Below the pieces are notes generated by a model that saw only the letters and a program-made list of their open reading frames with translations, was not told the DNA's origin and did no database searches. Shown here piece by piece: positions 1,275 through 48,492 of a stretch of DNA of 64,000 nt. Each line of letters begins with the position of its first letter. Within the stretch, counting starts at the first letter, position 1. Position numbers and translations under genes: made by a program. The stretch lies in the sequence record PX246731.1; one strand, 5' to 3'. The DNA is from a phage.

Positions 1275-1588
1275 ATGGCAAGCATCGACTCCTTGACTGT
1301 ATGTAATTCACGTCAAGCTCGTAACTTTATTATCCGTGCCCTGAAAGCAGGTAACGTACCGTTCCTGACTTCATCACCTGGCATGGGTAAATCTGCAATC
1401 ATTCGTTCTATTGCAGAAGAATTTGGTATGAAGTTAATTGACCACCGTCTATCTACTTCTGCCCCGGAAGACCTGTCTGGCTTACCTTTCCGTAATGGTG
1501 ACCGTGCAGAGTTTATTCCATTCGCTGACTTATTCCCCATTGAGGGAGACGAAGTACCAGAAGGCTATAATGGCTGGCTCTTATTCCT
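1275..1588 (+). CDS. MoxR-like AAA+ ATPase, exon 1 of 3 (join 1275..1588, 2471..2804, 3671..4075)
   Basis: RBS aggag upstream of ATG 1275. Walker A SSPGMGKS. The ORF ends LLFL just before an in-frame stop; the Walker B continuation DEFN is found 882 nt downstream in frame. Confidence 0.7.
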
Positions 1589-2470
1589 TAACTGACGGGG
1601 CTTCATGAGAGCAATCTCATGTCGAAAGTTACCTAAACAGGGAACCTCTTCTAATATGGTTGGCTCAGGTGTATACTTGAGTTTTAATCAATTGGAGACA
1701 ATCCTGTGCTAAATAATGAAATTTGGAAAGATGTGCCCGACTTACCGTATGAAGTTTCCAACTTTGGTGTAGTACGCCGAAAAGAAGGAAAGTATAAATA
1801 CAAAAATAGGACACATATAAAACCGTATCTTAATAACAAAGGGTACTACTGCGTGAACCTGTACATGAATAGTAAAGTGTACAAATATCAAGTTCATCGT
1901 CTGGTAGGCATAGCCTTTGTACCAAACCCCAATAACTATCCAGTTATTAATCATATAGATGGAAACCCTCTTAATAACCACGAGAGTAACCTGGAATGGT
2001 GTACCCAGTCCCAAAATATTAAACATGCTTGGGATACTGGATTATTGTCAAACAGACATGCCAACGCTAGTAACAAAAATCGTGGAGGCTCCTCCAAATA
2101 CGTAGGTGTATCCTGGAGTGAGCAAAGACAAAGATGGTGTGCCCATATAAGGGTTAACAAGAAATCTATTGGTTTGGGACGTTACAAAACAGAGGAAGAG
2201 GCTGCCAAAGCCTATGACTCCTACGTAACTAACAACAATCTTACACAGATTGGGTACAGTACCAATTTCATTTAAACGCCAAACGACTATCGAAAACACA
2301 CAGAAATGTGGAAGTGAGTAGAGTAGGGTGCAAGCCAATGGCACTCGAAACGGTAACAGCCCTAGCAATAGGGCTTTGATATAGTCTCCTCTGCATGGTG
2401 ACATGCAGCAGTCAGTATTCACTGAGTGTACTGACGGCATTAGTAGTTGCGAACTAATGTGAAGATAATG
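1589..2470 (+). mobile_element. Group I intron 1 (self-splicing intron carrying an HNH homing endonuclease ORF)
   Basis: 5' exon ends in U (1588); intron ends in G (2470). GNRA hairpin catgaga-gcaa-tctcatg at 1604-1621. Core 2276-2470 contains gatatagtct (group IA S-element-like) and hairpin ctgcatg-gtga-catgcag at 2391-2408. Strong similarity with covariation to the second element at 2805-3670. Confidence 0.7.
1706..2275 (+). CDS. HNH homing endonuclease (NUMOD4 / HNH_3-type, intron-encoded)
   Basis: GTG start at 1706 with ggag RBS. N-terminal EIWKDV..YEVSNFGVV (NUMOD4-like), HRLVGIAF and NHIDGNPLNNHESNLEW (HNH), C-terminal AP2-like YVGVSW..W.A.I. Lies inside intron 1. Confidence 0.75.
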   Translation: MLNNEIWKDVPDLPYEVSNFGVVRRKEGKYKYKNRTHIKPYLNNKGYYCVNLYMNSKVYKYQVHRLVGIAFVPNPNNYPVINHIDGNPLNNHESNLEWCTQSQNIKHAWDTGLLSNRHANASNKNRGGSSKYVGVSWSEQRQRWCAHIRVNKKSIGLGRYKTEEEAAKAYDSYVTNNNLTQIGYSTNFI

Positions 2471-2804
2471 CGACGAGTTCAACTCAGCTAAGAAAGAAGT
2501 AGTAGCTGCTGCATACAAGCTGATTCTCGACCGTATGACTGGTCAGAAAAAGCTTCATCCTAACGTGATGATTGTCTGTGCTGGTAACAAAGCTACCGAC
2601 CGTGCCATTGTTAACCCATTGGGTACTGCAATGCAGTCTCGTGTGGTTCACTTTGAAATGGAACTTAACTTCGACATCTTTGTTGAAGACGTAATGATTC
2701 CTCAGCAATGGGATGAACGTCTGGTTGCATTCTTACATGCTAACCCAGGTTACCTGCATGACTTCGACCCAGCACACAAGAACAAAACGTTCTGTTGCCC
2801 ACGT
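2471..2804 (+). CDS. MoxR-like AAA+ ATPase, exon 2 of 3
   Basis: Begins DEFNSAKKEVVAAAYKLILDR, completing Walker B (LLFL|DEFN). Contains sensor-1-like VMIVCAGN. Proposed end at 2804 (U, codon boundary), 15 nt upstream of the intron 2 GNRA hairpin, the same spacing as in intron 1. Confidence 0.6.
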
Positions 2805-3670
2805 AAACACACTGCGATTCAGGGGAGTAATTCCCTGTCTAAAGCTGCCTAAAACGGGAAACACTTTACATTCTGTTGCCTAAAGGTAATATGTAAAAGT
2901 CAATCCGTTACTAAATTGGGAGTCAGCATGAGTGAGATTTGGAAAGATGTTGTTGAATTTGAAGGTTTATACCAAGTATCTAATACAGGTAAATACCGTA
3001 AGCATGAGTCACGCCAATCTGTAAATAAGTACAGAGAAGTTAAGCCCCTTATCAGGGCACTTAACAAGAACCGATTAGGTTATCTGTATGCCTCTATGTA
3101 CAAAGATGGGAAGACTCATAAGAAAACTATTCATCAACTCGTTTGTGCAGCATTTAAACCAGGCTTTAAGTATGGTGATCCTGTTAACCACTTAGATGGT
3201 AATAAGGAGAATAACCATGAAGACAACCTGGAACCATGCACCGCACAAGACAATAATCTCCATGCTCATAAAACTGGGCTAGCCCCTAAACCAGGTAAGT
3301 CTGTGTACCACAATGTGCACATACGTCGTAGTAAGTATAAAGATAAAATTTACACTTATTACGAAGCCAAGGTTAAAGATAATTACAAGGTAGTATTCTA
3401 CAAACAGTTTAAAGATGAGGTAGCTGCTGCTAAAGCCGTAGATGCCTATCTGGACTCAATTGGGGATACTAGACGTAAACGTAATTTCTGACTTCCATAA
3501 ATGTCCAACGACTATCCCGGGGAGGGAGTAGAGCATAAGCCAATGATGCTCGAAATGGTAGCCACCCTACAGGTAATGCTAAGGGTGTTGATATAGTCTA
3601 GTCTGCATGGTGACATGCAGCAGTTCATAAGAGAACGGGCGTAGTCTTGCGAACTACGTCGAATATCACG
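2805..3670 (+). mobile_element. Group I intron 2 (self-splicing intron carrying an HNH homing endonuclease ORF)
   Basis: GNRA hairpin cagggga-gtaa-ttccctg at 2820-2837. Core 3520-3670 shares gatatagtct and the ctgcatg-gtga-catgcag hairpin (3603-3620) with intron 1. 3'-terminal hairpin cgtagt/actacg (3640-3658) covaries with intron 1 attagt/actaat (2439-2458). Terminal G at 3670, 12 nt after that hairpin in both introns. Confidence 0.65.
2928..3491 (+). CDS. HNH homing endonuclease (NUMOD4 / HNH_3-type, intron-encoded)
   Basis: ATG 2928 with gggag RBS (ORF track starts at TTG 2916). SEIWKDVVEFEGLYQVSNTG (NUMOD4-like), HQLVCAAF and NHLDGNKENNHEDNLE (HNH). Distinct sequence from the intron 1 endonuclease. 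Confidence 0.75.
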   Translation: MSEIWKDVVEFEGLYQVSNTGKYRKHESRQSVNKYREVKPLIRALNKNRLGYLYASMYKDGKTHKKTIHQLVCAAFKPGFKYGDPVNHLDGNKENNHEDNLEPCTAQDNNLHAHKTGLAPKPGKSVYHNVHIRRSKYKDKIYTYYEAKVKDNYKVVFYKQFKDEVAAAKAVDAYLDSIGDTRRKRNF

Positions 3671-4075
3671 ACCTGGGACTTTGTTAATAAAGACCTCAAG
3701 AACCTACCGGAAGGTGCTCTGCCTGATGAGGATTCTATCTACTATGCAGGACACGTTACTGCTGGTAAGGCTACAGAGTTTGTTCAGTTTACACAGGTGT
3801 ACAATCGTATCATTACGATTGAGAAAGTAGTCAAAGACCCACTGGGCTGTGCACTACCGGAAGATAACAACCTGTGCTGGGCTACTGTTAACCATCTGGC
3901 TAACAAAACTACTGAAGAGAACTTCGCTGATGTTCTTCAGTACATTGAACGCTTTAAAACGTTCACCCATAAGATTCTGTACTTCCGTACAGTAGGCAAT
4001 GCATTACCAGATCTTCAGGCTACCCCTGAATGGCGTAAGGCTGCTGCTAATATCTCTCGCTATATTCACGGATAA
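3671..4075 (+). CDS. MoxR-like AAA+ ATPase, exon 3 of 3
   Basis: Frame is open from 3614; first exon codon proposed at 3671 (acc, TWDFVNKDL...) immediately after the intron terminal G. Stop at 4073-4075. The three exons sum to 1053 nt (350 aa). Confidence 0.6.
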   Translation, partial: TWDFVNKDLKNLPEGALPDEDSIYYAGHVTAGKATEFVQFTQVYNRIITIEKVVKDPLGCALPEDNNLCWATVNHLANKTTEENFADVLQYIERFKTFTHKILYFRTVGNALPDLQATPEWRKAAANISRYIHG

Positions 4076-4082
4076 TCACAAC

Positions 4083-5258
4083 ATGAACCAATTTCCTCAG
4101 CACACACTTAGTGATGAACAACTCATGCGTGAGTATGACCGTATTCAGGCTCAGGCCTTCCTGGGCAAGTCTGCTGCGTTCTTTGGTTCATTGCTGTGTA
4201 GTCTTAAGTTCTCATGGAAACGTGAGGATTGCCCCACTGCATGTACTGATGGGATAGAACTCCATTTCAACCCAGACTTCTTTATCTGGATGTGTCCAGA
4301 TGCAAGAGAAACAGTATTAATGCATGAACTATGGCATGTAGCATATCTACATGACATCCGTCGTGGAAGCCGTGACCCGGAAATCTGGAACCAGGCTTGT
4401 GACCACTTCATTAACCTTCAGTTAGAAGAAGATGGTTACAAGTTCACTGGCATTGACAAAGGCATTTGCAAAGACCCTCAATATAAAGGATGGGTCGAAG
4501 AAGACATCTACGATGACCTGATGAAGAACCCTCAGAAAAGGCAGAAGCCGTCAGGGGGTGCTGGAGCAGGTCTTGCTGGCGACATGAAATCCCCCACTTC
4601 GGGGCAGTCCCAGGGTGCTGTTGTCAACAACGTAGTACGTGCAATGCAGAGCCAAAAGATGGCTGGTGGAACAATGCCCGGTAAGGGTGCTGGTCGTATG
4701 GAAGAGGTTATTACCCAATTCCTTAAACCAGTGGTTCCATGGCAGGAAGTTCTCATGAACTTCTTTACCGACATTGATGACACACATTATACGTGGGCCA
4801 GACCTAACCGTCGTTACACTGACATCTATCTACCTTCACTGGAAGATGATGAAGGTCGTTTACGCCACTTAGCCTACTTTGAGGATGTGTCTGGTTCTAT
4901 TAGTAGTGCTGACTCTCTGCGTTTTAACTCAGAGGTCGCCTATGTTAAGAGCCAGTTTAATCCTAAGAAGATGACCCTAATTACCTTCGACGATACTATT
5001 CAAGAAGAGATAGACATCACTGAAGAAGATACTTTTGAAGAGATTAAGATTACTGGTCGTGGTGGTACAAACCTGGAACCAGTACGCGAGTGGATTATTA
5101 AGAATAAGCCAACCGCTGCAATCATATTCTCCGATATGTATGTTCGCCCAATGGAAGAATTGCCATTTGATATCCCTATCATCTGGTGTGTTCTGAATAA
5201 TCCTAATGCTACCGTACCTTTTGGGGAGGTAGTTCATATCCCTAAAGGAATGAAATAA
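4083..5258 (+). CDS. VWA-like domain protein with HExxH metallopeptidase-like N-domain (MoxR partner, DUF2201/COG3864-like)
   Basis: HELWH motif (HExxH) in the N-domain; C-terminal VWA-like region (MTLITFDDT..ITGRGGTN). Sits directly downstream of the MoxR ATPase, the canonical MoxR-VWA arrangement. Start chosen at the first ATG after the exon 3 stop; ORF track shows an upstream extension from 3999. Confidence 0.6.
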   Translation: MNQFPQHTLSDEQLMREYDRIQAQAFLGKSAAFFGSLLCSLKFSWKREDCPTACTDGIELHFNPDFFIWMCPDARETVLMHELWHVAYLHDIRRGSRDPEIWNQACDHFINLQLEEDGYKFTGIDKGICKDPQYKGWVEEDIYDDLMKNPQKRQKPSGGAGAGLAGDMKSPTSGQSQGAVVNNVVRAMQSQKMAGGTMPGKGAGRMEEVITQFLKPVVPWQEVLMNFFTDIDDTHYTWARPNRRYTDIYLPSLEDDEGRLRHLAYFEDVSGSISSADSLRFNSEVAYVKSQFNPKKMTLITFDDTIQEEIDITEEDTFEEIKITGRGGTNLEPVREWIIKNKPTAAIIFSDMYVRPMEELPFDIPIIWCVLNNPNATVPFGEVVHIPKGMK

Positions 5259-5800
5259 TGGAAACACCCATAAAAACCTGTCGCAAGTGTTTGCAGGAGT
5301 TCCCGGCTACGCTTGAGTTCTTTTACAAGAACGCTGGTGGCAAATATGGGGTAACTCCACGGTGCAAATCATGTGTTAATGAGGATAATGCAGCCGGGCA
5401 TGCAAAACGTTTGGCTGCTAATCCAGAAAAGATACGTGCTCAAGCTGCTGCCCGTAGTAAAAAACATTATTACAAAGATTTGGAACAATCGCGTGAACGA
5501 CAGTGTATAGCTCAAAAGAAAGCGAGAAATGATCCCGTAAGGGGAGAACGTATTAAAGCACGTAAACGTGCAAATGGTGCTGGGCTAACACCGGAAGAGA
5601 TACAACAACTCCTCATTAGTCAAGGAGGCGTGTGTGCTATCTGTGGTGATCCACCTACCGATTTAGACCATTGCCATAAAACAGGTAAAGTTAGATTTCT
5701 ACTATGTAAGCATTGCAATAGAGGACTGGGTGCTTTTAAAGATAAGCCAGAACTAATGCGAAAAGCTGCACAACTACTGGAAGACTTCAATGATAATTAA
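5258..5800 (+). CDS. Endonuclease VII-like HNH nuclease (free-standing homing-endonuclease-like)
   Basis: Paired Cys motifs: CRKC..C.SC at the N-terminus and GGVCAICGD..DLDHCHKTGKVRFLLCKHCNRGLGAFKD (Endonuclease_7/HNH-type zinc site). Start overlaps the upstream stop (TAATG). Confidence 0.65.
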   Translation: METPIKTCRKCLQEFPATLEFFYKNAGGKYGVTPRCKSCVNEDNAAGHAKRLAANPEKIRAQAAARSKKHYYKDLEQSRERQCIAQKKARNDPVRGERIKARKRANGAGLTPEEIQQLLISQGGVCAICGDPPTDLDHCHKTGKVRFLLCKHCNRGLGAFKDKPELMRKAAQLLEDFNDN

Positions 5801-6479: not shown

Positions 6480-6552
6480 GTAGCTGCCTAAATAGCCCAG
6501 CATTGTTGGGCTATTTGTGAAGAAACTAACTCAACCCCACATAGGAACCATC

Positions 6553-6813
6553 ATGGAATCTTTAGCAGCAATCCTTGTTATGTTGTTTGTATTAGCTGTA
6601 TACCTTATCCCTACTATCATTGCTTTTGCACGAGGCCATGCCTCTAAGTGGGGCATTGGTGTGCTAAACATCGTATTAGGTTGGTCACTGGTATTCTGGG
6701 TAGTAACACTGATTTGGGCACTGTCCAATAAAGGACAGTCTCAGACTACAATCGTTAACGTTGGTAGTGGTAACCAGTACAACGTGTCCCAAACGAGCAG
6801 TAAAGCAGAGTAA
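6553..6813 (+). CDS. Superinfection-immunity-like small membrane protein (Imm_superinfect-like)
   Basis: Two predicted TM helices with IPTIIAFARGH....GVLNIVLGWSLVFWVVTLIWA, matching the signature of the Imm superinfection immunity family. Start at ATG 6553 (aggaa RBS) preferred over 6517, which overlaps the upstream hairpin. Confidence 0.5.
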   Translation: MESLAAILVMLFVLAVYLIPTIIAFARGHASKWGIGVLNIVLGWSLVFWVVTLIWALSNKGQSQTTIVNVGSGNQYNVSQTSSKAE

Positions 6814-6886
6814 CTAACCGAAGTATCCCCAAGAGGGTACTTCTGGAAGTTACTTCCAGCTCATTGCTTATCCATCTCCTAACCCA

Positions 6887-6916
6887 AGCCCACCTAACCC
6901 GTGGGCTTTTTTATTT
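6887..6916 (+). terminator. Rho-independent terminator
   Basis: Stem agcccac(6887-6893)/gtgggct(6901-6907) followed by ttttttattt. It lies inside ORF-track ORF 6864..7310, arguing for a later start of that gene. Confidence 0.6.
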
Positions 6917-6929
6917 AAAGGTACTTCTT

Positions 6930-7310
6930 ATGTCAAGTAGACGAAATGGTAAGTCTATCCTACAAGGACTGGACTTCGGTAAGCTGGAACAAACTGCAAT
7001 GCTTGCTTTAGGTAAAACTATCCATGATCAAGTGGAAAGTGAAATTGAAGCAGATATTTATACAAGAATGCAGGTTCTTATTAAGAAAAAATGGGTTACT
7101 ACCAGATCCCTTCATTCATACATTCCCCCAGAACCTCATCTGAAATCTAAGGTAGACCGAATCATAGATAAGTTCTGGCTTAACCCATGTAAGGATGACA
7201 CGCAACTTTATCTGGCTCAAATACAAAAGAATCCTCGTACTAAGGATGTATTCAAAGGCAAGAGCACTACCCATCACTACCCCTGGTATAGAAGAGGTAG
7301 TAAATACTAA
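6930..7310 (+). CDS. hypothetical protein
   Basis: ATG 6930 downstream of the terminator, with aaagg RBS; same frame as ORF-track ORF 6864..7310. Confidence 0.4.
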   Translation: MSSRRNGKSILQGLDFGKLEQTAMLALGKTIHDQVESEIEADIYTRMQVLIKKKWVTTRSLHSYIPPEPHLKSKVDRIIDKFWLNPCKDDTQLYLAQIQKNPRTKDVFKGKSTTHHYPWYRRGSKY

Positions 7311-9724: not shown

Positions 9725-12292
9725 ATGTTAGTTGCAGATACCAATGAAGTAGCTACCTCAGCGACACTGGGTGGCAAAGAAACAATTGCCTTTGGCATCT
9801 CTGATGACCCGGCATTCTTCCATGTATTAAGTACTTCCCTATATAACAATCCTACCTTAGCAGTAGTTCGTGAGACTATCTGTAACAGTTGGGATGCTCA
9901 TATAGAAGCTGGTAAGACTGATAATCCTATTCGTATCACTATTGATACTGATAACTTTATTACCTTTCGTGACTACGGTAATGGTATTCCAGATGAACTC
10001 ATTGGTTCCATTTATGGTGTCTATGGTGCATCTACTAAGAAGTCCAACAGTAGTGTTACCGGTGGCTTTGGTCTGGGATGTAAATCCCCATTCGCTTATA
10101 CAGATAGCTTCCAGGTTACTTCATGGAACCAGGGAAAGATGTCGGTATACAACGTAGCTAAGGCTGCGATTGAGAATGATGGTAAGCCTGGTATTGTTCC
10201 TATTGTTACTGGTATTCCTACTGAGAAATCTGGTCTAGAAGTTAAATTCCAGTTAGGCAAACATGACGTAAATACCTTCATACATTACATCACATCAATC
10301 GTATTTAACGGTGAGATTAAAGCTGAGCTTAGTATTCCTAAACTAGTTAAAACAGAAGCAGGAAATAATATTCAACAAGGTGACTACACTTTACTAAATA
10401 CGCTGGGAATGTCATTTGAACCTGGTTCATATGATATGTCTGATAGCTGGTATCAGGGTTATATGGGTAACAGTAACATATTCGTTCGTTACGGCAACGT
10501 AATGTACCCAATAGTATCTAGCCCAGCTAGTGAAGAAGCTGTAGGTCTTATCCTCAACTTTATGAACATCATTGGTGCATCTAATTTAGTAGTTCAGGCT
10601 GCACCGGATACTCTAGCTATTGCCCCTAGTCGAGAAACACTGTCTAATCAGAAGTTAACCGACGATGGTATTACTACTCTATGTGTAGATTTAGTAAACC
10701 GTATGGAGAAAGAGATTAAGGCTAAGATTCCTGAAGCTATTAAGCAGGTTGAAGAATATGCCTCTAAATCCTCTACCTGCTTCTGGACCTATCCGTCTTT
10801 CCTGCTTGCTGTTACAGACAGAATCGTTCAACGTTATATGTCCTCTAGTTTGTGGGCTAAGCAACGTAAGCATCACATCAAGCATTGGCGTAATCTATCC
10901 AATAAAGCATTATTAGCTCGTCCTGAATATGCAGGTCTTAAGAAACTGTATGGTAAGGCTATGCGTGCTCTTAAGGATACTCGCGAAGAAAGTACATACT
11001 CCCCATTCCATGAATTAGTATATCGTCATCTACACTTACCTCAGCTTGCTGCTTTAAAAGCTGCTGGTATTAAGTGGTCTGGTTACATAGTGAACCAGGG
11101 TAACAGTGTTGACTTGGAGAAGGGTAAACTCGCTGACTACTTTAGGATATTCCATAACTCTCATCAAAGTATTGGCATATTCACTACCAAGAACGTTGTA
11201 GTTACCCGACGTTTATCTGATTGTGCAGACTCTTTCTCATACTTCCCCGAATACAACCGAGGTGACCTGGAGCGTACAGCTTTTGTTCACTTAGTTGGTC
11301 CTAAGAAGGGTGCAGCAGAAGAAGCTGTAGCTAAGTTCACTGCTATGGGTTATCGGGTGATTGACCTTACTCAATATAATGAGTGGGACAAACCAACCAA
11401 CTACCGCAGAGAGCAGGCTAAGATAGCTGCTGAGAAACGGGCTAAGACAATAGCTGCCAATAAAACCAAAGCAGGGGGTAAAACTAATGCTCTGATTTCA
11501 TTGAATGCAGTTCTTGGTACTACTCCTGTACATAATAAAAACGGTGATTGGGAATTTAAGCCGTATATTCAGAAGGAGTTTGCTGACCCAAGTCGCCATG
11601 AAAAGTATGGTTTCGTTGAAGTAGAGCATCCTAAGTACTATGTACTGGCTAATCAGGTTGGTTCTGGTAGTCCATTAACTGCCAGAATTGGAACCATGTG
11701 GAAATGGTATGAGCTATCTGATGAGATGAAAGCAGATACTGTTGTCTGTCGCAATCGAATCGAAGCTAATAAGGCCAAACGACGAGGTGCTATCCACATT
11801 GATGATGTTCGCTTTAATGAGTTGATGTCAGTTATTACCAGTAAAGGCTTCAAGAAGTATGTTACTGAACACCGCATCAGTATTCTGGATTACATAGGAC
11901 TGGATGACAGAGAGTATTGGGAAATCCTTGACATACTGGGTCTAACGTTCAAACCATTACAGAATCTGATTTTTAAACCAGAGTATGAATGGGCATATGA
12001 CTTTCTACGGAGTCGACCACATGACAACAAAGAAAAACTTGTTGAAATGGGCTGTATTAAATCAGTAGATGACTTAGAGCCATATAGAATGATGGCTAAT
12101 CCACGTAATCATAAGTACTTTAAAATTCTTAATGATTACAAAGAATTATTCAGTTATAGCTGGAATAAAAATGACATCCTACAGACGCTGGACTTAGGTA
12201 GTTTGGTAAAACACCTTAAGAAGAATCCAGAGGATATTCCTGGGTTTAAGTCCCTCTACCGTAACCGTCTAAATAAACTGAAAGGTAACTAA
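9725..12292 (+). CDS. rIIA: rIIA-like protein (GHKL-type ATPase domain)
   Basis: N-terminal GHKL/HATPase_c motifs: ICNSWDAH (N-box-like), FRDYGNGIP (G1-like), TGGFGLGCKSPF (G2-like). 855 aa, directly followed by a second large ORF, the rIIA-rIIB pair arrangement known in N4-like phages. Confidence 0.65.
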   Translation: MLVADTNEVATSATLGGKETIAFGISDDPAFFHVLSTSLYNNPTLAVVRETICNSWDAHIEAGKTDNPIRITIDTDNFITFRDYGNGIPDELIGSIYGVYGASTKKSNSSVTGGFGLGCKSPFAYTDSFQVTSWNQGKMSVYNVAKAAIENDGKPGIVPIVTGIPTEKSGLEVKFQLGKHDVNTFIHYITSIVFNGEIKAELSIPKLVKTEAGNNIQQGDYTLLNTLGMSFEPGSYDMSDSWYQGYMGNSNIFVRYGNVMYPIVSSPASEEAVGLILNFMNIIGASNLVVQAAPDTLAIAPSRETLSNQKLTDDGITTLCVDLVNRMEKEIKAKIPEAIKQVEEYASKSSTCFWTYPSFLLAVTDRIVQRYMSSSLWAKQRKHHIKHWRNLSNKALLARPEYAGLKKLYGKAMRALKDTREESTYSPFHELVYRHLHLPQLAALKAAGIKWSGYIVNQGNSVDLEKGKLADYFRIFHNSHQSIGIFTTKNVVVTRRLSDCADSFSYFPEYNRGDLERTAFVHLVGPKKGAAEEAVAKFTAMGYRVIDLTQYNEWDKPTNYRREQAKIAAEKRAKTIAANKTKAGGKTNALISLNAVLGTTPVHNKNGDWEFKPYIQKEFADPSRHEKYGFVEVEHPKYYVLANQVGSGSPLTARIGTMWKWYELSDEMKADTVVCRNRIEANKAKRRGAIHIDDVRFNELMSVITSKGFKKYVTEHRISILDYIGLDDREYWEILDILGLTFKPLQNLIFKPEYEWAYDFLRSRPHDNKEKLVEMGCIKSVDDLEPYRMMANPRNHKYFKILNDYKELFSYSWNKNDILQTLDLGSLVKHLKKNPEDIPGFKSLYRNRLNKLKGN

Positions 12293-12296
12293 TCTG

Positions 12297-14345
12297 ATGA
12301 AAATCGAACTGATTTCTATCATCGCACTGGCAGTTGACAGTCGTAATCTTACATTGTGGAAGCCTGATGGCTCCACGATTGTATATCCTCAGAGCGACCC
12401 ACGGGTTGCTCGCATTGTATCTGAAGCACAAACCAAAGGTTTGGGAACTACTAAAGACCAGATAGAAGTAAACATTGCACCAGAAGAAAACCTGCGTACT
12501 GAATATCTGGAAGCAGAGAAGAACACTAATGGATTCGTCCGTTTCTTCAAGGTAGCTAAAGCTAAACTTAAAGAGTTCTTCCAGGATGGTACAGGTGTCC
12601 AACCTGCACACATAGTCTCAGATATTAAGTTGGGTAATCCTACTAAGACATTAGTATCTAAAGCCATGGATACCTTCCTGGCTGTACAGGCTAATGAACC
12701 AGAAGTAACAGTAGTAGATGGTTGTTATGACAGACGTGACAACCTGATGTGGGTTACTGGCTGGGATAAGGACCATAACCATCTTGCACTGGTTCGCTTT
12801 ATTAACGATGTATTGTATTGGGGTTATGTCCATACCGACCGTATTCTTGCACAAGAGTGGCCTATTGCAATTCGTGCAGTATCCGATGATGAAATGAGTG
12901 AGTTTGCTAAACAAGCTAAGCACATCAAAGGAGTACACATTGTATTTACCAGTCGTGATGTAACTCCATTTCCTTACGTAGAAGTAGCTAAAACTACGAA
13001 CCAGGATAAACTGGCTGCTGCTTCTGAGAAGTTAGCTGCATTGGGGGCTATTAGTACCGATGATGCTAACTTCCATACTGATGTGAAAGAAGATGAGGTG
13101 GTTGTTGCTGTTACCAACAATGGGGTTATCCCTGGGGTTGAAAACCTGCATCGTCACTTACGTCAGTCTGCCAAGCTTAAAGACTACAAGGGCTTTACTA
13201 AGTTCCTTGAACGCCTGGCTCCGGTTATTAAAGACCGTCTGCACTCAGTAGAAGACCTGATGAAGTTCATGGAGACTGCTGAATTACCTATTGCTGATGA
13301 TGGTTCAATCCTGTTCCTGAAACGCCTGCAGTATAAAGGCAACGAAGATGGTAAGCGTGTATTCGTTGACTGTCACTCAGGTAACATCAAACAGTGGGTA
13401 GGTTGTAAAGTGCAGGTACGTGAAGACCTGGTAGACCCTGACCGTCGTCAGGACTGCTCAAATGGTCTGCATGTAGCATCCATGAGTTATATCCGTAGCT
13501 TCGGTGGTAATGTGACCATCCTTGGTAAAGTAGCACCAGAAGACGTATTTGCTGTTCCTCAGTACAACACTAATAAGATGCGTGTATCTGCGTATCATAT
13601 TATTGCTGAACTACCGGAAGAGGAGCGTAATAACGTTAACAATGGTATCTACCTGTCTAAGACAGAAGTAGGTAAAAAGCTGCTTAATGATGCCATCGTT
13701 GGTAACCATAGTTCACCTACCACACTTATTATGGTTGGTGGTCATTATGGTACTAACCTCAAATACACTAATCTCACATCTGGTTCTGTAGAACAATTCC
13801 GTACAATTGCTAGTAAAGAAGCACTGAACATGGAAGAGTCACTGAATGAAGCTGTAGCTGCTGAACCAGTGAAGGCTACTGACCTTAAACCTGTTATTAA
13901 GAAGGCTCCTACTGTGAAAGAACAAATCCAGGAACTGGTAAAAGAGTTCCTCAATGCAACAACACCAGAAGATAAGTTAGCTGCTGCTGATTTGCTTGTG
14001 GAAATGCGAGGCAAGGCTCGTAAGCCATGGGCTGCTTTAGGTGTTAGTTCCGATGTGGTGGATGCAATTGCTACTATCCGTAGTACTCGCATTCCTGTAC
14101 CTAAAGCTGTTAAGCAGGATAAGACAGTTAAACCTACGCGTTATGCTACTGCCACTAAAGTAGCTACGTCTGGTAAACACGCTGATAATCTGCGAAGCAT
14201 CCTTAATGATACGACGTACTCTGACTATCAGAAAGGCCATGCTCTGCAAGACTATAAGCGTCATGCTAAGAAGTCATTCACTGCAATGGGTCTGACTGAG
14301 GAAGAAGCTAAGTTAGCTACCAATCTGGTCAAAGCTGCTAAGTAA
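12297..14345 (+). CDS. rIIB: rIIB-like protein (putative)
   Basis: 682-aa ORF immediately downstream of the rIIA-like gene; assignment is by synteny only. Confidence 0.4.
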   Translation: MKIELISIIALAVDSRNLTLWKPDGSTIVYPQSDPRVARIVSEAQTKGLGTTKDQIEVNIAPEENLRTEYLEAEKNTNGFVRFFKVAKAKLKEFFQDGTGVQPAHIVSDIKLGNPTKTLVSKAMDTFLAVQANEPEVTVVDGCYDRRDNLMWVTGWDKDHNHLALVRFINDVLYWGYVHTDRILAQEWPIAIRAVSDDEMSEFAKQAKHIKGVHIVFTSRDVTPFPYVEVAKTTNQDKLAAASEKLAALGAISTDDANFHTDVKEDEVVVAVTNNGVIPGVENLHRHLRQSAKLKDYKGFTKFLERLAPVIKDRLHSVEDLMKFMETAELPIADDGSILFLKRLQYKGNEDGKRVFVDCHSGNIKQWVGCKVQVREDLVDPDRRQDCSNGLHVASMSYIRSFGGNVTILGKVAPEDVFAVPQYNTNKMRVSAYHIIAELPEEERNNVNNGIYLSKTEVGKKLLNDAIVGNHSSPTTLIMVGGHYGTNLKYTNLTSGSVEQFRTIASKEALNMEESLNEAVAAEPVKATDLKPVIKKAPTVKEQIQELVKEFLNATTPEDKLAAADLLVEMRGKARKPWAALGVSSDVVDAIATIRSTRIPVPKAVKQDKTVKPTRYATATKVATSGKHADNLRSILNDTTYSDYQKGHALQDYKRHAKKSFTAMGLTEEEAKLATNLVKAAK

Positions 14346-28440: not shown

Positions 28441-28469
28441 AGCCCCTCTAATGAAGGGCTTTTTCATTT
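28441..28469. terminator. Bidirectional terminator hairpin between convergent genes
   Basis: Stem agcccct(28441-47)/agggct(28455-60) flanked by A-runs upstream and T-runs downstream; sits at the 3' ends of the plus-strand gene 27979..28359 and the minus-strand vRNAP gene. Confidence 0.6.
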
Positions 28470-31400
28470 AGTTAGTGAGGTTGAGCCATGGGTTCAGGGT
28501 ATGGGCACGTAAACCTTGTCCGAAACCGAAGGAGTAACCGAGATTACCCTGTGCAGCAATGCTAAAGATGTTGTCCTGAATAGGTAAACCAACGTTACCA
28601 AACATGGTAGGAGTTGGTGCTAACATAGCCATAGCAGCATGTACCGGGTTATTACGAATCATGGACACTGCAACTTTTGCAGAACGAATCTTAAAGTTGT
28701 AGAACCACATTAAACCAACACTTTCCATATATCCACGGAAGCGTCCTGGTAAACGGTCATAGTTAATGAACTCTTCCGTTACACGTCCTAGTGCTTCTTC
28801 ACGAGTCTTACCCTTACGCTGAGTCAGTTCATCATAAATGATTGCTTTAGCGATAAAGTCAGAGTACTCAACTGTCTTCTGAATACCCTGGAACAGAGCA
28901 GTATCCTTAGTGATAAGTGCATAACGACCAGCGTTACGTACAGACTTAGGCAGCTTATCAGCCAGCTTATCCATGTATTCGTGAAGTTTACCTTCAGTAA
29001 TCAGAATGTCATCACGCCCGATACCAGCATCTGCAATTGAAGAGAACTCTCCAGCTTCCAACAGAGGCCAGATACTCAAACGTTTATGGCTATCAGAGAT
29101 GGACTGAATCTCAGCCTTAAGTTTACGAATCTGGTTCGGGTTAGTAGCTGCACGTAATTCTGCTTCTGCATCTACCTGACGCAGACGAGATTTCAAGTAC
29201 TGGTTAATCTCAGCAGTTTTCTGTGGAATGCTCTTAGCAATATTCTTAACAGGTACACCACGAGCAACCATCTGGTAAAGGTTAGCCAGGAAGTTAACAG
29301 CAGGTACGACTACTGACTTAACTACAATCAGAGTCTTAGCTTCTTTAACTAAGTTCTGAACCAGGTTCTCACCACCCATTACGTACTTATAGGCACGGTT
29401 ACCAAATACACCCAGCATAGCTTTCTTGAAGGTATCCAGTGTTTCTGGGGACCAACGAGAATTACCAGACCAGGCATCACCAACAGAAGCTGCACGATAA
29501 CCAAGAGCATCATTCAGCATGTCACGACGTACCCACAATTCACCAGGACCAAACAGACTTTCTGCTTTCTGACGTGTTTCGCTGTTCATCAGTTTAAGAG
29601 CATCAGCAGTTACTGGGTCCAGTTTAGAACCAAGAAGGTTAACGTACTGGGACTTATTAGAGGCAGACATCTTAATGTCGTTCTCATACATGCTATGCAG
29701 GTTCTCAATCAGCATATCGTTGAAACGCTGAGCCTTAGCCTCTTCTACCTGACGTCCACGCCATACACCGATTGCACGAGCAAGATGGTTCTCACCTTCA
29801 ATATGCTTCAGCATGTTAGGGTCAATAGATTGCTCGTAAGCAACCACATTGCCATTGGCATCATATACAGGCAGCAGGGGTTCATTACCACGTTCACCAC
29901 GAGCCAGTGCTTTAGTGATACGGTCTACGGAAGGCTTGTCAGTAATACGACCAGCTACCATGGTTCCCATCGTAAAGCCTGTACCTAGGTCTACACCACC
30001 AGCAGTATTACGAACGTTCTGCAGGATACCCTGTGAGAATGGAGCCTGTGCCTGTACTGGTGCAAAGTAGTAGCTACGAGCAGAACCACGATTAGCAGAG
30101 CTACCCTGATACGTACCCAGTCGTACATAGGATTTCTCAATCAAATCAGCAAACTGACTATCTTCAGCAACAATCAGGTTAACGCCCTGTTTAGTTTCAC
30201 CAGGAATATACCCTTTGTACTGGTTCAGGGTTGCACGGCTATCAGACTTGGCTTTAGCCATTTCATCTTTACGCTGACCAACCAGGTAAGAAGTAGCAAA
30301 GTCCATGCCTTCAATTTCTGTCTGAGCCAGCGAAGATAACATCTCACGGTCAATCTTATTCATTGCTTCCAGTGCATATAGGGTAATGAGTTTATCCAGC
30401 TGAGCTACATCAACAACAGAACGTGTAGTCTTACGTTCACCAAGCAAGCGAGAAATTGCAGTAGCATTACGCAGTAGGTTATTACCAACTGTACCATTAA
30501 TCATGTACTGAGCCAGTTGCTTAGATTTACGATTAATCAGAGGCCAGTTACGCCCTGCTTGTTTCTGCAAATCTGCTTCCAGTTTATTAACCTCACGGTC
30601 AACAATCTTCTGGTCAGTCAGCAGGTCACGGATTTCATCCAGAGACATAGTGTCACGTAGAACAGCTAAGTCAGTTTTACCCATACCGGTATGCATTGCT
30701 TTCCACTCATCGTTGGTCAGCTTACGGCTGAACTTAGCTGCGATAGTGGTAGGCAAGTGTTCACGGAACTGTTGACGGTCAGCCTGTACCTGTGCACGTA
30801 CTGCTTTAATCAAATCATACACAGAAGCATTGCTCTTAGTACGTCCGATTATGTCATTAACCAGGTCATGGAAAGGTTGCCATACTTTACCCTGATTCAT
30901 TGCAGCCATAACACCCTCAGCTACGATTGAACCATTCTTCTCTGTAGCAATAGCAGCTACCAGTTGTGCAGCATGAGCAGCACCTTTAACCAGTGGGTTC
31001 TTGGTATTAGCTGCAACTTCACGAGCACCTTCCAGAGCACGGGTAGACAGTACATCAATAGAGTCCACCAGATACTGGTTAGCACGGTCAATAGCATTAC
31101 CAGTAGGAGTAGCAACGGAATCATAGAAGGACTCTGCATTAAGACTGGTCTGCATGATTGTCTGAGCCAGTGCATCCATACCTTCCTGTACGTTAGTGGC
31201 TTTAGTATCACCTGCTACACGAGCATTCAGACTAGCCATTGCAGCAGTACCGATGTTAGTCAGCATTGCATCAACAGTATTGCCTGACTTCTTATCCGCT
31301 TTCATAACAGGAATATCAGCCAGTACCTTACGTACCTCTTCACTTACCATTGCCAGACCTACAAAGGTAGGCAGCAAGGAAGAACGACCCTGTGCATCAA

Positions 31401-34400
31401 ACTCAATATTGTTAGCACCCATGATGGTATCGAACTTCTGCTGTGCATAGTAACGGTCAGCAGGGTTAGTACTATCCGGGTCAGCCATGAACGCTTCAAC
31501 AGTCAAGTTCTTAGTAACGTGTGTGTAGTATTCCTGTGCACGAGCCATAGCAGCAGGATTAATAGCAGCCTCGGTAGCCAGTGCAGCAACAATGTTAGTA
31601 AAGAGACGCTGTTCCTGCATATTCATGGTGAAGCCATGAGCCTGAACATCACGGGTTACTTTAGTTGCATTCACTACTGCATCAGAGAACTTACCTTTAC
31701 GAATTACTTGCTGTACTGGTTCTGAACCAATGTAGTTAGTAATTAGCTTATCGAAGGTTTTCCCTAACTCTTCCAGACGAGTATTGTCACCATATGCTTT
31801 GTTATGGAACAGGGTAGTGTCCTTAGCTACAGCAGCAGTAGGAGCTTGCCCACGCATTACTACAGCAGAGTTAAACAGTAAGCCAGAGAACATATCATCT
31901 GCATTAGCTGGAGCTTTCTTACGACCAAATACCAGACGTTTGATTGCTTCGTATACAGCCTGAACCATAGTTTTAAGTGCAGTGGTTTTCTTCTGCTTAC
32001 TAATCAGTTCTCGGTTGGTTAAACCCCAAGCCATGTACTCGTTCAGTGCAGCAGCTTTAGCCATTGCTGGTTCAATGAAGCCATTAGACAAGTGACCATT
32101 AATGGTATTAAGTGCATCAGCATATGCTTCACGTACTGCCGGAGATTCATCATTAACATCCAGAGCACGGAACTGGTTCATCAGGTCTTCAATATTCTGG
32201 ACAGCTTCATTAGGAGTACCTTCGTAGTGAGCCAGTACAGATTCAAAAGTAGAAGCATGTACCAATTCATGAACCAGAGTCTCTAATGAAGGAGTAACTA
32301 AGTAGATGGTCTTATCTTCAAAGTTAGTCCAGCCATATGCATTACCTGCTTCAGCAGCCTCAATATCTTCTGGTGCTGGGCGAGTAATATTCTTCTCAAT
32401 AGCATAGGCATCCAGTTGAGAAGGTGTACCATAAACAACCTTATAGTCTTTAGCAGCAAGGGATTTCTGTATTTCTTTCAATACTTCTTGCTGTTCAGGA
32501 GACATCTCTTTAGCCAATTTAGTAATAGCAGTATTAGACAGCAGACGTACACCAGATTTCAGTACACGACCAACTTGTTCCATTGCTGGTACTTCTTTCA
32601 CTGGTTCTGCTTTAGCAGCACGTACTGCATCACGACGCTTGTTTAATTCAGCATCAAACAGTTCGTTCAGCTTAGCTACTTGCTGGTCTACAGTAAGCCC
32701 TTCCAGAGAGATTTTACCGTTGTTCACATAAGGAGCACCAACAGCAGCCATCTGGTCAACAGTGACTTGTACCTGGTCCATTACCTTGTGACGAATATCT
32801 ACACCCAGGGCAATGTTACGCAGATTACGCTCAATCAATGCAATACCAGAATCCTTAATCATAGAAATTTTATAATCTCTATCACCATCTACTCTGGCAA
32901 TATGAGTACGTTGCTCAAAGTCTAAAGCAGACTTTGCAATAGCATCTATTGCTGAATCGGACAGCTTATTTAAATCAACATTCTTAACAAACTTAGAGAA
33001 AGACTCATAAACATTCTTGATAGGGTTACCCTGCCAGGAAGTGTATACAGCCTCATTAGCTTTACGGCTTGCATCAGTAATGTCATTGATACCAATGTTC
33101 ATACCATCAAAGATTTTAAGGGTATTCTTCGGAGCACCCTTCATAGTAGAAAGAGTCTGCATCATCATGCCATCACCAGTACCAATGGTCATAAATGGAA
33201 TACCTGCAACACCTGCTTGTGAAGGAGCATAGATGCTCATTGGCACACGCATACGGTCATCTAAGTTGGTAGCCAATACTTGGTTAGCAACATCAGTATT
33301 CTCGCTGCCAGCAATGTAGAAAGTCTGGGAACCAGTCTCAATCATTGGAGCCAGTGGTGCTAAACTATTCTGAATTTCATTCAGTTCTTTCTGTGTTAAG
33401 AAATCACCCTTCTTCCATGTTGGGTCTTTTTCTTTTTCTGCCAGTTTAGCCTGTACTGCCTGTTGGAACATATCCTGCAATACCAGAGATTGAATCTGAG
33501 TAGCCTTCTGCAAGTTCTCCGTAGATTGCATTAACCCATCGCCAACAGTGAATCGGATACCTTGTCTCATTGGCTCAACAAAGAAGTGCAGCATATTCTC
33601 TTGTAAGTTCTTAAGAGCATCTCCGGATACGGTAAACTCCTGGGGGTCTAACTTACCAGTCAGAACACCATCTACTTCTTTAATGAATAACTTACCTTTA
33701 CGCTTAGCTGGAATATTACCAGTCAATGCTTTCATAGAAGTAAGGAAGGTATCCAGCATAGCCTGAGCATCAGCCTCAGAAGCAGCCTCCTTACCAAACA
33801 TCGCCATAGCTGGGGAAATGTTAGGGTCAACAGCACGGGCTTTCAGAACGTCGCTTAGACGCTCATAGATGGTATCAGTAATTGCACTTACCATCTTGCC
33901 TGCAATACCACGAGCACCAGAACCATAAATGGTAATAGTCAGTGGGTTTTTAGCGATACCACGCTTCAGGTCCAGAGTACCATCTTCATTAAGATTGAAG
34001 TCTTTGATGAACAGGTCCATTAACTTCTGGAGATGGTCCATCTGGTTTATAACAGGAATATTTTTACTATAAGCATTGCGTAATTCATTTAGATAGAATT
34101 GCAGACTATTAGTAGATGCTTCATACAGGTCAACACTGTCTTCCTGAGTATGATGCTCATTCATGGTCTTACCGGCTTTACCGAAGAACAAACCACCTTT
34201 GGCAGTATTCTTAATCCAGTTTGGAGTGAACTTACCACCGGTCATTAATACCATTGCGTTGATTGGACCGTTGGTTACACCATCGGCTTCAACGTACAGT
34301 GGGGTATTAAAGTTGGCACGGTCATCACTGTTAAGGTAACGGGCATATTCCATAAGAGCCATAAGAGCTACAAAGGATTTATCATTACCCAAAGAGGTCG

Positions 34401-37400
34401 TCAGAATATTCACTGCATCGGTAGGTAAGTATCCAGACTTATCAAACTCAACCATCATATCTACAGCAGGTTTCAGCTTACCTTCCAGAGCTTTGGTAAG
34501 TTCCTCTGACATAGTTTCACGAGTCATTTTATGAACTTTGATACCCAATGCCTGAGCCAGTCCAAGCTGGAAGCCTGAGAAGTCTTCATTGTTCTGGTTC
34601 GATAAATCCAGAGTAGCTTTGGTAGGTAAGATAGCCTCACGAACTAGCTTAGCTGATTGAGGGTTATATTTACCTAACATCTGCATACGACCAACACGGG
34701 TCATATTGTAAGCATAGTGAATAGGTACAGAAGAAATGTCTTCACTCTGTGCTCTTACCTGTTCAATAACAGAGAACAATTGGTTGTAAGAATCCTCTAC
34801 TGAACGGTTTTTACCTTCCAGAGATTTAGCATGGTTCTTATTAAGTAAATCCTTATCCAGAGTACCAGCACCCATCAATTCGAGAATACGGTCTTTACCT
34901 AAAGCCTCATAGAACTGAACCATTGGGGTATGCACAAAGAACTCTGTAGCCTGCTCTGCTTTAAGGGCAGCTTTCTGTTCCGGAGTATTACGGACAGCAG
35001 GGTTACGTAACTGAGTATGAGCCACGGGAGGAATGTCATCACCGAAATACAGTTTCTCTACTGGTTCTACGAGGACAGCTTCCTCGATAGCAGTAGGGAA
35101 TTTGTTAATAGCGTCGGTATCATCCAGCTTCTCAATGGTATACAGACCAATAGTCTTATTGGATTCTGGGTCAATTTCAGACACATCCAGCATGGACTCT
35201 TTAACTTCACCCATTTCAATAAGGGAAGACAGAATCTCTGTAGCCATTGCCATCGGGATACCTTTGGTATAACCAAGTGGTGCATCAGCATTACGATTAA
35301 GTCCCCAGTAAGATTCAATCTTTTGAGCCAGTGAGTTAGTAGCTTCTACTAAGGTTTGTGCATTCTCAAATTCTGCGAGGATACCTTCTGGTAACAAGGA
35401 AGCATTTACACCAGTAATTGCAGCCACATCCTGCATGTCTTTAATAGCAGCATTCTGTGTAGCAGTAAGTCGCCATTGCAGACCAGCAAGTACAGCAGTC
35501 TCTAACAACTGGTCATTGAACTTAAAGGTGTCTCCGTCTTTCTCTACGATATTAAGTAACTTACCACCTACCCAACGGTTAGCTTCAGTACCTTCTGCAA
35601 AACGTTTACCAACGTTCTTGTTAGCAAGGAATTTAGCCAGACGGTCAGACAAAGTAGTCTTCAGAGTTTCACCAAACTCAAATAAGTCCTGGTAACGCTT
35701 AATCACATCACTTGTGAGAGCGTTATTTTCTTTTTGAGTAAATGCTTCAAAACGAGCAGCAGAAGACAGTGCTTTCTTAACATCAGTTAAAGGAGATTCA
35801 GAACCAATGGTACGGGACTTAGGTTCTTCTGGCAGACTAAATGCTTTAAGGAACTGGTTCGGTGTCTTTTCATTGTTATAGACAGGGAACACTGCTTCCA
35901 TTCCCGATAGAGGTTTACCACCAACAGTATAGTCTGCTTTCAGTTGAGCCAGTGATACTTCTTCTTTCTCAACATTATTGGTATTAAGCCCAGATGTATC
36001 TACACCAATCTGAATCAGTGCATTGTTTGCTTCTACGAATGATTGAACAGTATTGAATTGTTCAGCAGTTAGCTTCTGATTATCAAACAATTGCAGAGAT
36101 ACGAACGGTTGCTCACTACCTTTATAGAAAGTAGAACGTACAGCACCAGTATCCAGAGACATGTCACGATAACCATCATGACCAAATACGTCAGACAGAC
36201 TGATATGGTCGCCATTGGAACCAACAACAGTACCATCAGCGAATAGCCATGGACTATCTCTACGGTCACCATACTTATTAAGAGTATCTTGTGAAATAGT
36301 ATTCTCTTTCACATAAGAATCTCTTTCAGATTCAGTAGGCTGTTCAACGATATCCTGTTTTTCAGACTGGTTCTCAGGTTCTTTTACGGTTTGTGGTTTA
36401 GACTCTTTAATAGTAGGTTCTGTTTTAACAGCTTCACTAACAGAGGGTTTAGTCTGTACAGTAGGGGTAACTGGTTCCTGTTTTATAACAGGAGCTTCAT
36501 CAACCTGATTCACTGGTTCATTGGTCTGTTGGGATTGAGCAGCATCAAGATTGCCCTGACGGAACTCTTTAACTACCTGGGCAGCAGGTTTGTCCAGACG
36601 TGAATCCAATGGGGTAACTTTCACATGAGAAACATTAAGCTCCGGGTAAGCCGTAGCAAGTGCGTTAGCAATATCAGCTACGGTCTTGGCTTCCAGTCCT
36701 ACTTGCTGGGCAAACTTAACAGACTTGGTATCATACGGATTGACACCGAGGCCAGTACGACTACGTACCCATTCACGCGAGGGAGTAAGAGCCTGATAAT
36801 GGACAGACTTATTCTTATCCGCATTCCCAGAAATCAAATGCTCATTCAATGCTCCGACCTTATTCTGCATGTGCTGGGCGAACTTCATAAAGTCGTCGAG
36901 ATAAGCGGAAGCCAAATCGAAGTTACCAGAGTTGTACGCAGAACGAATGCGTTTAGCATGTTGCAACGCAGAGTACTGGCCTTCATTAGAACGAGATTCG
37001 TCGGTTTTAATCTGTTTACTAACAATGTCTTGAGGACGTAAGCCTAGTTCTTCTGCTTTAGCGTCAAATTCTCGTGCTCCTTGCAATAAAGCAGCAGCAG
37101 ATTGCAGGGCAGCACGCTGACGATTACCCAGTGTAATCTTACCTTCACTTGCATGTTTCAGAACCATGTTCACTGAATCCGCATCCAGCACTTCTGGAGA
37201 CATATCAGCAGCCATAGCAATGTTGTTTGCCTGAGCTTGGTTAGCTTTTTCAGTAGCTTTCAGTTTACCTGCTTCAGCCTGTTCCTGAATCATAGAATGG
37301 ATGGCACGGAATGCACGGAGTACCTTCGGTGTATTCTGAACATTAGCCATCAGGCCAGAGAATTGGTCAACAATATTAGCAGCAGGAGAACCCTGTTCCA

Positions 37401-47271: not shown

Positions 47272-48492
47272 TTAAAGACTACCCGGTACTGGGAGTTTAG
47301 CGAAATCTTCATCACTCATAGCGAGTGGGTTTACAATAGGTGTTGCTTTACGTGTAGCAGCCCGATTAAGGGAAGCTGCTTTAGCTTGCTCGTTGTTAGC
47401 CAGAGTCTGCTTAGGTTGTGCTACACGCACTACCGGCTGAACTGCTGGTTTAACTGCTTGTACCGGTTCAGGCTTAGCCACTTGGTTAAATGCTCCCTGT
47501 TGTGCAAGGAGGTTACCAACGTAGTTATAAGCCTGAATGAACGGAGTACCTACCGGAATCTGACCTAACACCTGAAGACGATTCACTTCATTAGCAATGG
47601 TGTCATAAATACCATTCTCACGTTGTTCGTGAATAGTGTGGAGTAGACCACGATTCTGATAAAGAGCATCTTTACTGGCAGCATCCCATGTCGAGCTAAT
47701 AACACCTAATGTAGCTTGTCCTTCTTGAGTAGACTTTAAGTCGTCAATTTCGGTTGCAAAATCTGCTTCGGTGTCTGTAACACGGTGTTTGCCACCCTGG
47801 TAGTTAATTTCCTCTTCTGGATTAAAGTCCAGAGGATCTGTACCAGAGTCTTTCAACAACTTTTTAATGGCTTCAGGATTCTTCTTATCCAGGTCAATAA
47901 GGAAAGAAAGTTTTTCCTCATCCATTAAACCGTTGTTTTGTAACATCAGCATTACCTTACGGTACGGCTGAAGTTCTTGCATCTTACGAGTATAATTAGC
48001 ACCCATCTGCATCAGGCTAATGGCCTCCTCCGGTGAACGGGGAGTAATCATTTTGCCGTTAGCTTTAAAAGGAGCCATCAACTTCTCATAACCTTCCTTA
48101 TAGTTGAAGTCAGCAGGCAGACCTTCAGACTGTTTACCTTCTTCTTTCTGTTCCTGGCCTGGTTCAGTAGTAGAAGGTTCAGCTTCAGTAATCGGCTTAC
48201 CGTTACTATCAACTTCTGTGTCAACAACTTTATCATCAACTTTATCAGAAGTTAAAGAATTTGCTGAATCATCTTCAACTGGGTCAGTTTCAGTGGAGGT
48301 TTCTTCGGTTGGTAGGTCTTCAACAGCAGGGGGGTCAACTTCTTCATCAGGAGTCTGTACGCCGTTGGTTTCTGGGTTGTTCTGAGTGGAAGAATCTTCC
48401 TCAGCAATAATTGCTGGGGCTTCCATATTCAGAATCTCATCATCCGACATTGCGAGAATGTCGGAAGCTGTGGTTGCAGCTTCCGTAGTCAT
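47272..48492 (-). CDS. scaffolding-like protein (acidic N-terminus)
   Basis: 406 aa with a very acidic, low-complexity N-terminal third and helical C-terminal part; lies between the portal and capsid genes. Confidence 0.45.
   Translation of the reverse strand: MTTEAATTASDILAMSDDEILNMEAPAIIAEEDSSTQNNPETNGVQTPDEEVDPPAVEDLPTEETSTETDPVEDDSANSLTSDKVDDKVVDTEVDSNGKPITEAEPSTTEPGQEQKEEGKQSEGLPADFNYKEGYEKLMAPFKANGKMITPRSPEEAISLMQMGANYTRKMQELQPYRKVMLMLQNNGLMDEEKLSFLIDLDKKNPEAIKKLLKDSGTDPLDFNPEEEINYQGGKHRVTDTEADFATEIDDLKSTQEGQATLGVISSTWDAASKDALYQNRGLLHTIHEQRENGIYDTIANEVNRLQVLGQIPVGTPFIQAYNYVGNLLAQQGAFNQVAKPEPVQAVKPAVQPVVRVAQPKQTLANNEQAKAASLNRAATRKATPIVNPLAMSDEDFAKLPVPGSL

Follow-up and report, generated by a model that had tools for sequence, protein, structure and literature searches.

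In the established picture, which rests on the work of Lu and Henning, T4 Imm (83 aa, NP_049660), the founding member of the family PF14373/IPR016410, is an inner-membrane protein: when T-even phages superinfect, it keeps their DNA from passing the cytoplasmic membrane. This block of DNA entry is attributed to Lu and Henning in PMC12642591 and summarised in PMC6832632. A 2026 preprint reports that T4 Imm and a fragment of gp29, the tape-measure protein, purify together, that in a cryo-EM map a loop of Imm lies against a hydrophobic patch in the helical-bundle domain of gp29, that the substitutions R33A and W50A reduce exclusion, and that the N-terminus of Imm is periplasmic (bioRxiv 10.64898/2026.03.06.709160). 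[quoted passage not shown] They resemble the protein described here only as functional analogues, with no sequence relationship detected or claimed.

In the window, by which we mean the whole 64,000-nucleotide stretch of phage DNA that was analysed (PX246731.1), an imm-like coding sequence for 86 aa occupies 6553..6813 of the + strand, stop codon included, an assignment based on the open reading frame, the Pfam and PHROG matches, the dN/dS of the core and an AlphaFold2 (AF2) model. It runs from the ATG at 6553 to the TAA at 6811-6813, exactly the limits that had been proposed from the sequence, and its product is MESLAAILVMLFVLAVYLIPTIIAFARGHASKWGIGVLNIVLGWSLVFWVVTLIWALSNKGQSQTTIVNVGSGNQYNVSQTSSKAE. 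A Shine-Dalgarno-like AGGA can be read at 6543..6546 (+), 6 nt 5' of the ATG, and the ribosome-binding block ATAGGAACCATCATG is kept in all 7 aligned Gamaleyavirus sequences, the window among them, with the start codon conserved alongside it; the annotated relatives all begin MES.... The listed frame opens further upstream, at GTG 6517, which is the first start codon past the preceding stop. We rejected this codon as the start, since it falls inside the 3' arm of a hairpin and opens an extension that is not conserved, the frame meeting a stop in Moo19. A promoter scan found no sigma-70 promoter 5' of the gene.

The original prediction had assigned the product to the Imm-type superinfection-immunity proteins and had named a Pfam search as the check. 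In Pfam-A, the Imm_superinfect profile (PF14373) matches far above chance level at 60.2 bits (E=1.8e-16; the gathering score is 27.9), and the alignment covers the full profile length (positions 1-42 of 42) at residues 16-57 of the window protein. PHROG 1039 (phrog_1039, "immunity to superinfection") matches with E=3.3e-32. T4 Imm itself (from NC_000866) scores 58.2 bits against PF14373, close to the score of the window protein, and BLASTP joins the two proteins by a gap-free alignment of 48 aa with 31% identity and 60% positives, in which R27 and W44 of the window protein align with R33 and W50 of T4 Imm. The motif on which the prediction had been built can be read as I19-P20-T21-I22-I23-A24, G43-W44, W49 and L53-I54-W55-A56. 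Moreover, the window protein carries the PF14373 signature, Y..P...A..R.H followed by I...N...GW....W.....W, at 11 of 11 positions (Y17, P20, A24, R27, H29, I35, N39, G43, W44, W49 and W55). When conservation of the signature was scored on the best 150 cluster representatives together with T4 Imm, P20 and W49 were invariant (151/151 sequences), H29 was kept in 121, and Y17, A24, R27, I35, N39, G43, W44 and W55 were each kept in at least 136. Searches with the window protein gave no matches in NCBIfam and PADLOC, neither of which has a model for the family, or among PDB sequences, and DUF3302 scored 18.4 bits in Pfam, below its cut-off of 32. The profile matches, the alignment with T4 Imm, the signature residues, the fold and the annotation of relatives thus agree on the Imm-type assignment, and the window gene shares with T4 Imm the family PF14373 / InterPro IPR016410.

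The predicted architecture points the same way. Two transmembrane segments had been anticipated, which is a fair first description: there are two membrane-length hydrophobic stretches, with Kyte-Doolittle peaks over 19 aa of 2.81 (residues 7-25) and 2.13 (residues 35-53); the AF2 model, built from an 81-sequence alignment with a pLDDT of 87.4, does not keep each as a single helix but breaks it into two short ones (helices 2-17, 19-26, 32-42 and 46-57), with kinks at P20 and at G43-W44. Residues 58-86 form a polar, variable tail that is modelled with low confidence. The nearest predicted viral structures found by Foldseek are all annotated as superinfection-immunity proteins, with probability 1.0 and TM-scores of 0.5-0.7; their E-values are weak (4e-3 to 0.16), as expected for a protein this small. 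Two hydropathy peaks, a compact helical core and fold neighbours so annotated are in keeping with the small, superinfection-immunity-like membrane protein first proposed. T4 Imm has the same length class and architecture, in that both proteins start with a hydrophobic helix, continue with a compact core of hydrophobic helices and end in a polar tail, but their identity over the core is only 31%. The window protein would insert in the cytoplasmic membrane and, by the positive-inside rule, its RGHASK loop would face the cytoplasm.

The PF14373 family is very large. An HMMER scan of 1.84 billion cluster representatives (E<=1e-3) recovered 7,637 clusters at 50% identity, with members of up to 348 aa and extra regions or domains in many of them, and a single common function is therefore not to be assumed. 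This diversity lends some weight to a reading in which PF14373 is a generic small membrane module, acting for example by modulating a host inner-membrane protein, and in which the immunity label is an unjustified transfer from T4; so do the lack of any defence-database model and the atypical sequence of T4 Imm, which is off consensus at three signature positions, without the H, N and G kept by the window protein. We nevertheless consider this reading unlikely. The counterparts of the two T4 exclusion residues, R33 and W50, are near-invariant family-wide, which argues that the activity of T4 Imm is carried by the conserved core; the family is also strongly represented among virulent phages of many types (927 matching phage records), and its siphovirus members adjoin the tape-measure gene. 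In the two siphoviruses sampled, Kagunavirus ULINTec2 (L016) and Pseudomonas phage YMC11/02/R656 (L017), the Imm-family gene lies less than ~1 kb from the tape measure or immediately upstream of it, and in YMC11/02/R656 it encodes a 196-aa protein and sits between tail chaperone-like genes and the tape measure. Such placement fits a link between the Imm family and the genome-entry apparatus, including the reported interaction of Imm with the tape measure.

The window phage had been taken to be N4-like, and the comparison with sequenced genomes bears this out. The 4-kb neighbourhood of the gene is 86-97% identical to the Gamaleyavirus genomes (Schitoviridae, Enquatrovirinae) of G7C, St11Ph5, Bp4, EC1-UPM, PhAPEC5 and others, and the window contains a virion RNA polymerase (vRNAP) ORF of 3601 aa at 28468-39273; the phage is a G7C-like, N4-related coliphage. 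The gene itself is already known, having been annotated in G7C-like phages since about 2011, and it is no discovery of this analysis. In G7C (HQ259105) it is gp27.1, "putative membrane immunity protein; similar to Imm of JS98", the same label appears in St11Ph5, Bp4, PhAPEC5, PhAPEC7, Moo19, nithesis and RefSeq re-annotations, and the 2013 genome paper of EC1-UPM lists the gene under IPR016410 (PMC3853248). A 100% identical 86-aa protein occurs in public collections on 8 contigs, and a copy of at least 60% identity in 55 phage records. Like gp27.1 of G7C, the Gamaleyavirus and Moovirus copies occupy the same locus, between gp27-like and gp28/gp29-like genes, and the proteins of G7C, St11Ph5, nithesis, PhAPEC5, PhAPEC7, EC1-UPM, Bp4 and Moo19 show 71-95% identity to that of the window, which differs slightly from the gp27.1 type by T52 (A in the others) and by a long tail allele ending in SKAE.

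Comparison of 12 phage copies by the Nei-Gojobori method, applied to the core, gave dN/dS values of 0.07-0.22 with dS ranging from 0.17 up to saturation, which clearly places the core under purifying selection and identifies a real gene. Residues 1-61 are nearly invariant among the Gamaleyavirus copies and the core is intact in 12/12. The variation gathers in the C-terminal tail, which exists as two unrelated alleles, QSQTTIVNVGSGNQYNVSQTS(SKAE or QSDK) and QNQVTNVTVVQTNGGSKAE, and which has lost 3 codons in the St11Ph5 copy; the Bp4 copy is truncated at 67 aa. Tail alleles, deletion and truncation are what one would cite for a chance ORF or a decaying, functionless remnant, a reading to which we give next to no credence: set against it are the low dN/dS of a core whose synonymous sites diverge up to saturation, the profile match at E=1.8e-16, the conserved ribosome-binding site and start codon, the intact core of all 12 copies and the 55 records that hold a related copy. 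Selection and profile evidence together effectively refute the chance-ORF reading.

The position of the gene differs from that of its T4 counterpart. Genes 43 and 42 flank imm in T4, whereas the window gene lies at a gp27-like/gp28-like locus, between the dCTP deaminase and gp27-like genes on one side and the gp28-like gene on the other; the Tevenvirinae-type synteny, in which imm of T4 and of MN01 adjoins gene 43, is absent here. The window gene is accordingly a homologue of Tevenvirinae imm and no positional orthologue.

The locus is framed by RNA structures. Directly 3' of the gp27-like gene, at 6489..6517 (+), RNA folding predicts a strong hairpin with a 13-bp stem and a 3-nt loop (-21.5 kcal/mol, z = -3.2), which is annotated as a stem_loop in G7C and whose structure is kept in N4 (L004:13043-13072), in Moo19 (L013:343-372) and in Gamaleyavirus, with both-sided compensatory changes at 5 of the 13 pairs. 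This hairpin is thus conserved across three Enquatrovirinae genera, with or without imm after it, and given its 3-nt loop and the lack of a clear T-run it may serve the phage RNA polymerases as a signal for processing or for termination. On the other side of the gene, the fold of 6811-6925 (-32.5 kcal/mol, z = -3.9) contains two 3'-UTR hairpins on the + strand, at 6820-6843 and 6845-6857. The stem sequence of the first differs among relatives with pairing retained, and the second overlaps GGAAGTTNCTTC, an element of which N4 has one copy and Moo19 two, one to either side of the cassette. We rejected GGAAGTTNCTTC as a recurrent promoter motif: allowing <=3 mismatches gave 10 matches where 6.6 were expected, and none of the others was near-exact. 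A terminator scan then places an intrinsic-terminator-like hairpin at 6886..6914 (+), with an 8-bp stem (5 G-C pairs) at 6886-6908 followed by T6; it is invariant among relatives and is also predicted by the annotators of PhAPEC5 and PhAPEC7. No Rfam family reached its gathering score in the window.

The upstream hairpin and the terminator bound a cassette, with ~370 nt between them, and the Gamaleyavirus and Moovirus copies of imm have the same flanking hairpin and terminator as the window. In N4 these two signals adjoin each other without imm: the gp27-gp28 spacer is 113 nt long and contains the hairpin together with the element GGAAATTCCTTTC...CATTGCTTA and a terminator of the form GCCCAC...GTGGGC-T6. 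Searches of N4 for imm found no homologue, the best E being 1-2.6 by tblastn and 0.4 with the family HMM on the six-frame translation, against 1e-36 for the window ORF, and the annotators of PhAPEC5 and PhAPEC7 record no N4 counterpart. N4 gp28 was considered as an Imm homologue and rejected, being homologous instead to the next gene of the window, at 6930-7310. The imm gene is therefore an accessory cassette set between two pre-existing transcription signals, outside the core Schitoviridae set. Moo19 has a perfect direct repeat of 16 nt, TTGTGGAAGTTCCTTC, with one copy on each side of the cassette (L013:367-382 and 691-706); the corresponding element has one copy in N4, and its upstream copy has decayed in the window. 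The repeat suggests an insertion or duplication scar and acquisition of the cassette by insertion; together with the single N4 copy it favours a gain in the Gamaleyavirus/Moovirus lineage over a loss in N4.

The locus around imm is generally variable among relatives. The gene 3' of it, at 6930-7310 (+), encodes 126 aa, against 80 aa for N4 gp28, and the two products have KSTxHxxPWYxR in common at the C-terminus. G7C lacks this gene; in St11Ph5 a GTG stands in place of its start codon, and the annotation shows just a shorter ORF.

Outside Schitoviridae, the closest relatives of the window protein belong to long-tailed phages, Mangalitsa (Chaseviridae, a myovirus) with 59% identity and Acinetobacter Obolenskvirus-type phages with ~52%. 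The Mangalitsa homologue (L015:3001-3255) shares the VNVGS.N..NVSQ tail motif with the window protein and has Leu in place of W44 (T4 W50), being otherwise well conserved. These similarities indicate that the imm cassette has probably been exchanged horizontally among coliphages of different morphotypes; synonymous divergence is saturated, so the transfer would not be recent.

From these comparisons we hold it probable, with moderate confidence, that the gene encodes an inner-membrane Imm protein which blocks genome entry of superinfecting phages by way of their membrane-inserting ejection machinery. Its position in the N4-type middle-gene block, read with what is generally known of N4 transcription, suggests that the protein would be made after infection begins, some minutes in. 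A second phage, already adsorbed, would then be stopped from moving its DNA across the inner membrane, through interference with the membrane-inserting part of its ejection device. T4 is a myovirus whose Imm is reported to bind its own tape measure gp29, whereas no tape measure can be recognised in the window phage, a podovirus, so that the target would be one of two kinds: the tape measure of long-tailed competitors (heterotypic exclusion) or a functionally analogous, membrane-inserting Schitoviridae ejection protein (self-exclusion). Counting against the proposal are the mode of action of the one family member with a characterised mechanism, which targets a tape measure where this type of phage has none, and N4, which has lysis inhibition and manages without imm. 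N4 has no characterised superinfection-exclusion system (PMC12642591), and since N4 lacks the imm-like gene, this gene cannot be that of N4. We found in the literature no exclusion test or phenotype for this gene or for any podovirus or N4-like Imm homologue, and the suggestion made with the original prediction, that an exclusion function deserves a test, still stands. As a well-conserved Imm homologue that purifying selection maintains in a podovirus lacking a tape measure, the gene offers a test case of whether the mechanism of the family extends to other ejection machineries or whether Imm serves lytic phages to keep out unrelated competitors with long tails, and the matter is relevant to the design of phage cocktails containing Gamaleyaviruses.

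The protein might instead protect the envelope, guarding the inner membrane against lysis from without, or set the timing of lysis in the manner of a holin or antiholin, with no genome-specific exclusion at all. The phenotypes of T4 imm mutants give this some support (PMC6832632), N4 shows superinfection-linked lysis inhibition, a behaviour of N4-type phages (PMC12642591), and the Gamaleyavirus rIIA and rIIB genes lie a few kb downstream of imm (window ORFs at 9725-14345). However, the window protein matches no holin family in Pfam, the lysis cassette is ~45 kb away (near 51-52 kb, by synteny with N4 gp60-63), lysis inhibition in N4 occurs without imm, and the T4 data now indicate direct binding to an ejection protein (bioRxiv 10.64898/2026.03.06.709160). 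We judge it quite improbable that the protein protects the envelope or times lysis.

Schitoviridae are short-tailed phages. The ejection apparatus proposed for them consists of the gp52-like, gp51-like and vRNAP proteins and has no tape measure (PMC11445570), and for vRNAP, as a candidate target, a transmembrane region has been predicted in the homologue of Pseudomonas phage DEV (PMC11445570). Imm in this phage might thus block the Schitoviridae ejection apparatus, or act through a host inner-membrane factor, instead of a tape measure, which we regard as possible, if doubtful. Among the five large virion-module ORFs that we checked, only the gp53-like one (41775-44429, - strand, 884 aa) has a cluster of transmembrane-like segments, three or four of them, Gly/Ala-rich and with Kyte-Doolittle values of up to 2.57, at residues 666-765; vRNAP has one weaker segment at about residue 3312. 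The gp53-like protein belongs to phrog_2220, where its function is unassigned, has no Pfam match, and could be a membrane-inserting ejection protein, a proposal drawn from its hydropathy. As pointers to the target of Imm, the gp53-like and vRNAP segments are a lead, not evidence. Were the target indeed something other than a tape measure, the Imm fold would block the membrane-insertion devices of phages in general and would not be a binder specific to tape measures, and the gene would be the first component of superinfection exclusion to be defined in N4-like phages.

The gp57-like ORF (47272-48492, - strand) was considered as a tape-measure target and rejected. Its PHROG name is all that speaks for it, and it has no Pfam tape-measure domain and no hydrophobic segment. 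The label "tail length tape measure protein" comes from PHROG 2120 and from there has reached RefSeq N4 gp57, in a short-tailed phage; the gp57-like gene sits between the major capsid and portal genes, and the tape-measure label on its product is probably wrong.

Two further features were seen upstream of the imm locus. An Endonuclease VII/HNH-type ORF of 180 aa (5258-5800, +; Pfam PF02945, 67.9 bits) stands between the gene of the gp25-like VWA/metallopeptidase and that of the dCTP deaminase, sharing base 5258 at one end and overlapping by 11 nt (5790-5800) at the other; most relatives align over 71-87% of the 4-kb region, which suggests that this ORF is mobile and absent from many of them. 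In addition, the N4 gp24-like AAA-type ATPase gene (1275-4075, +) is apparently in three pieces, at 1275-1595, 2535-2852 and 3647-4075, split perhaps by introns, by inteins or by endonuclease genes inserted on their own; Rfam gave no group I intron at this split gene. The pieces are separated by two HNH homing endonuclease-like ORFs of ~190 aa, at 1706-2275 and 2916-3491, both with an N-terminal ..EIWKDV...YEVSN.G.
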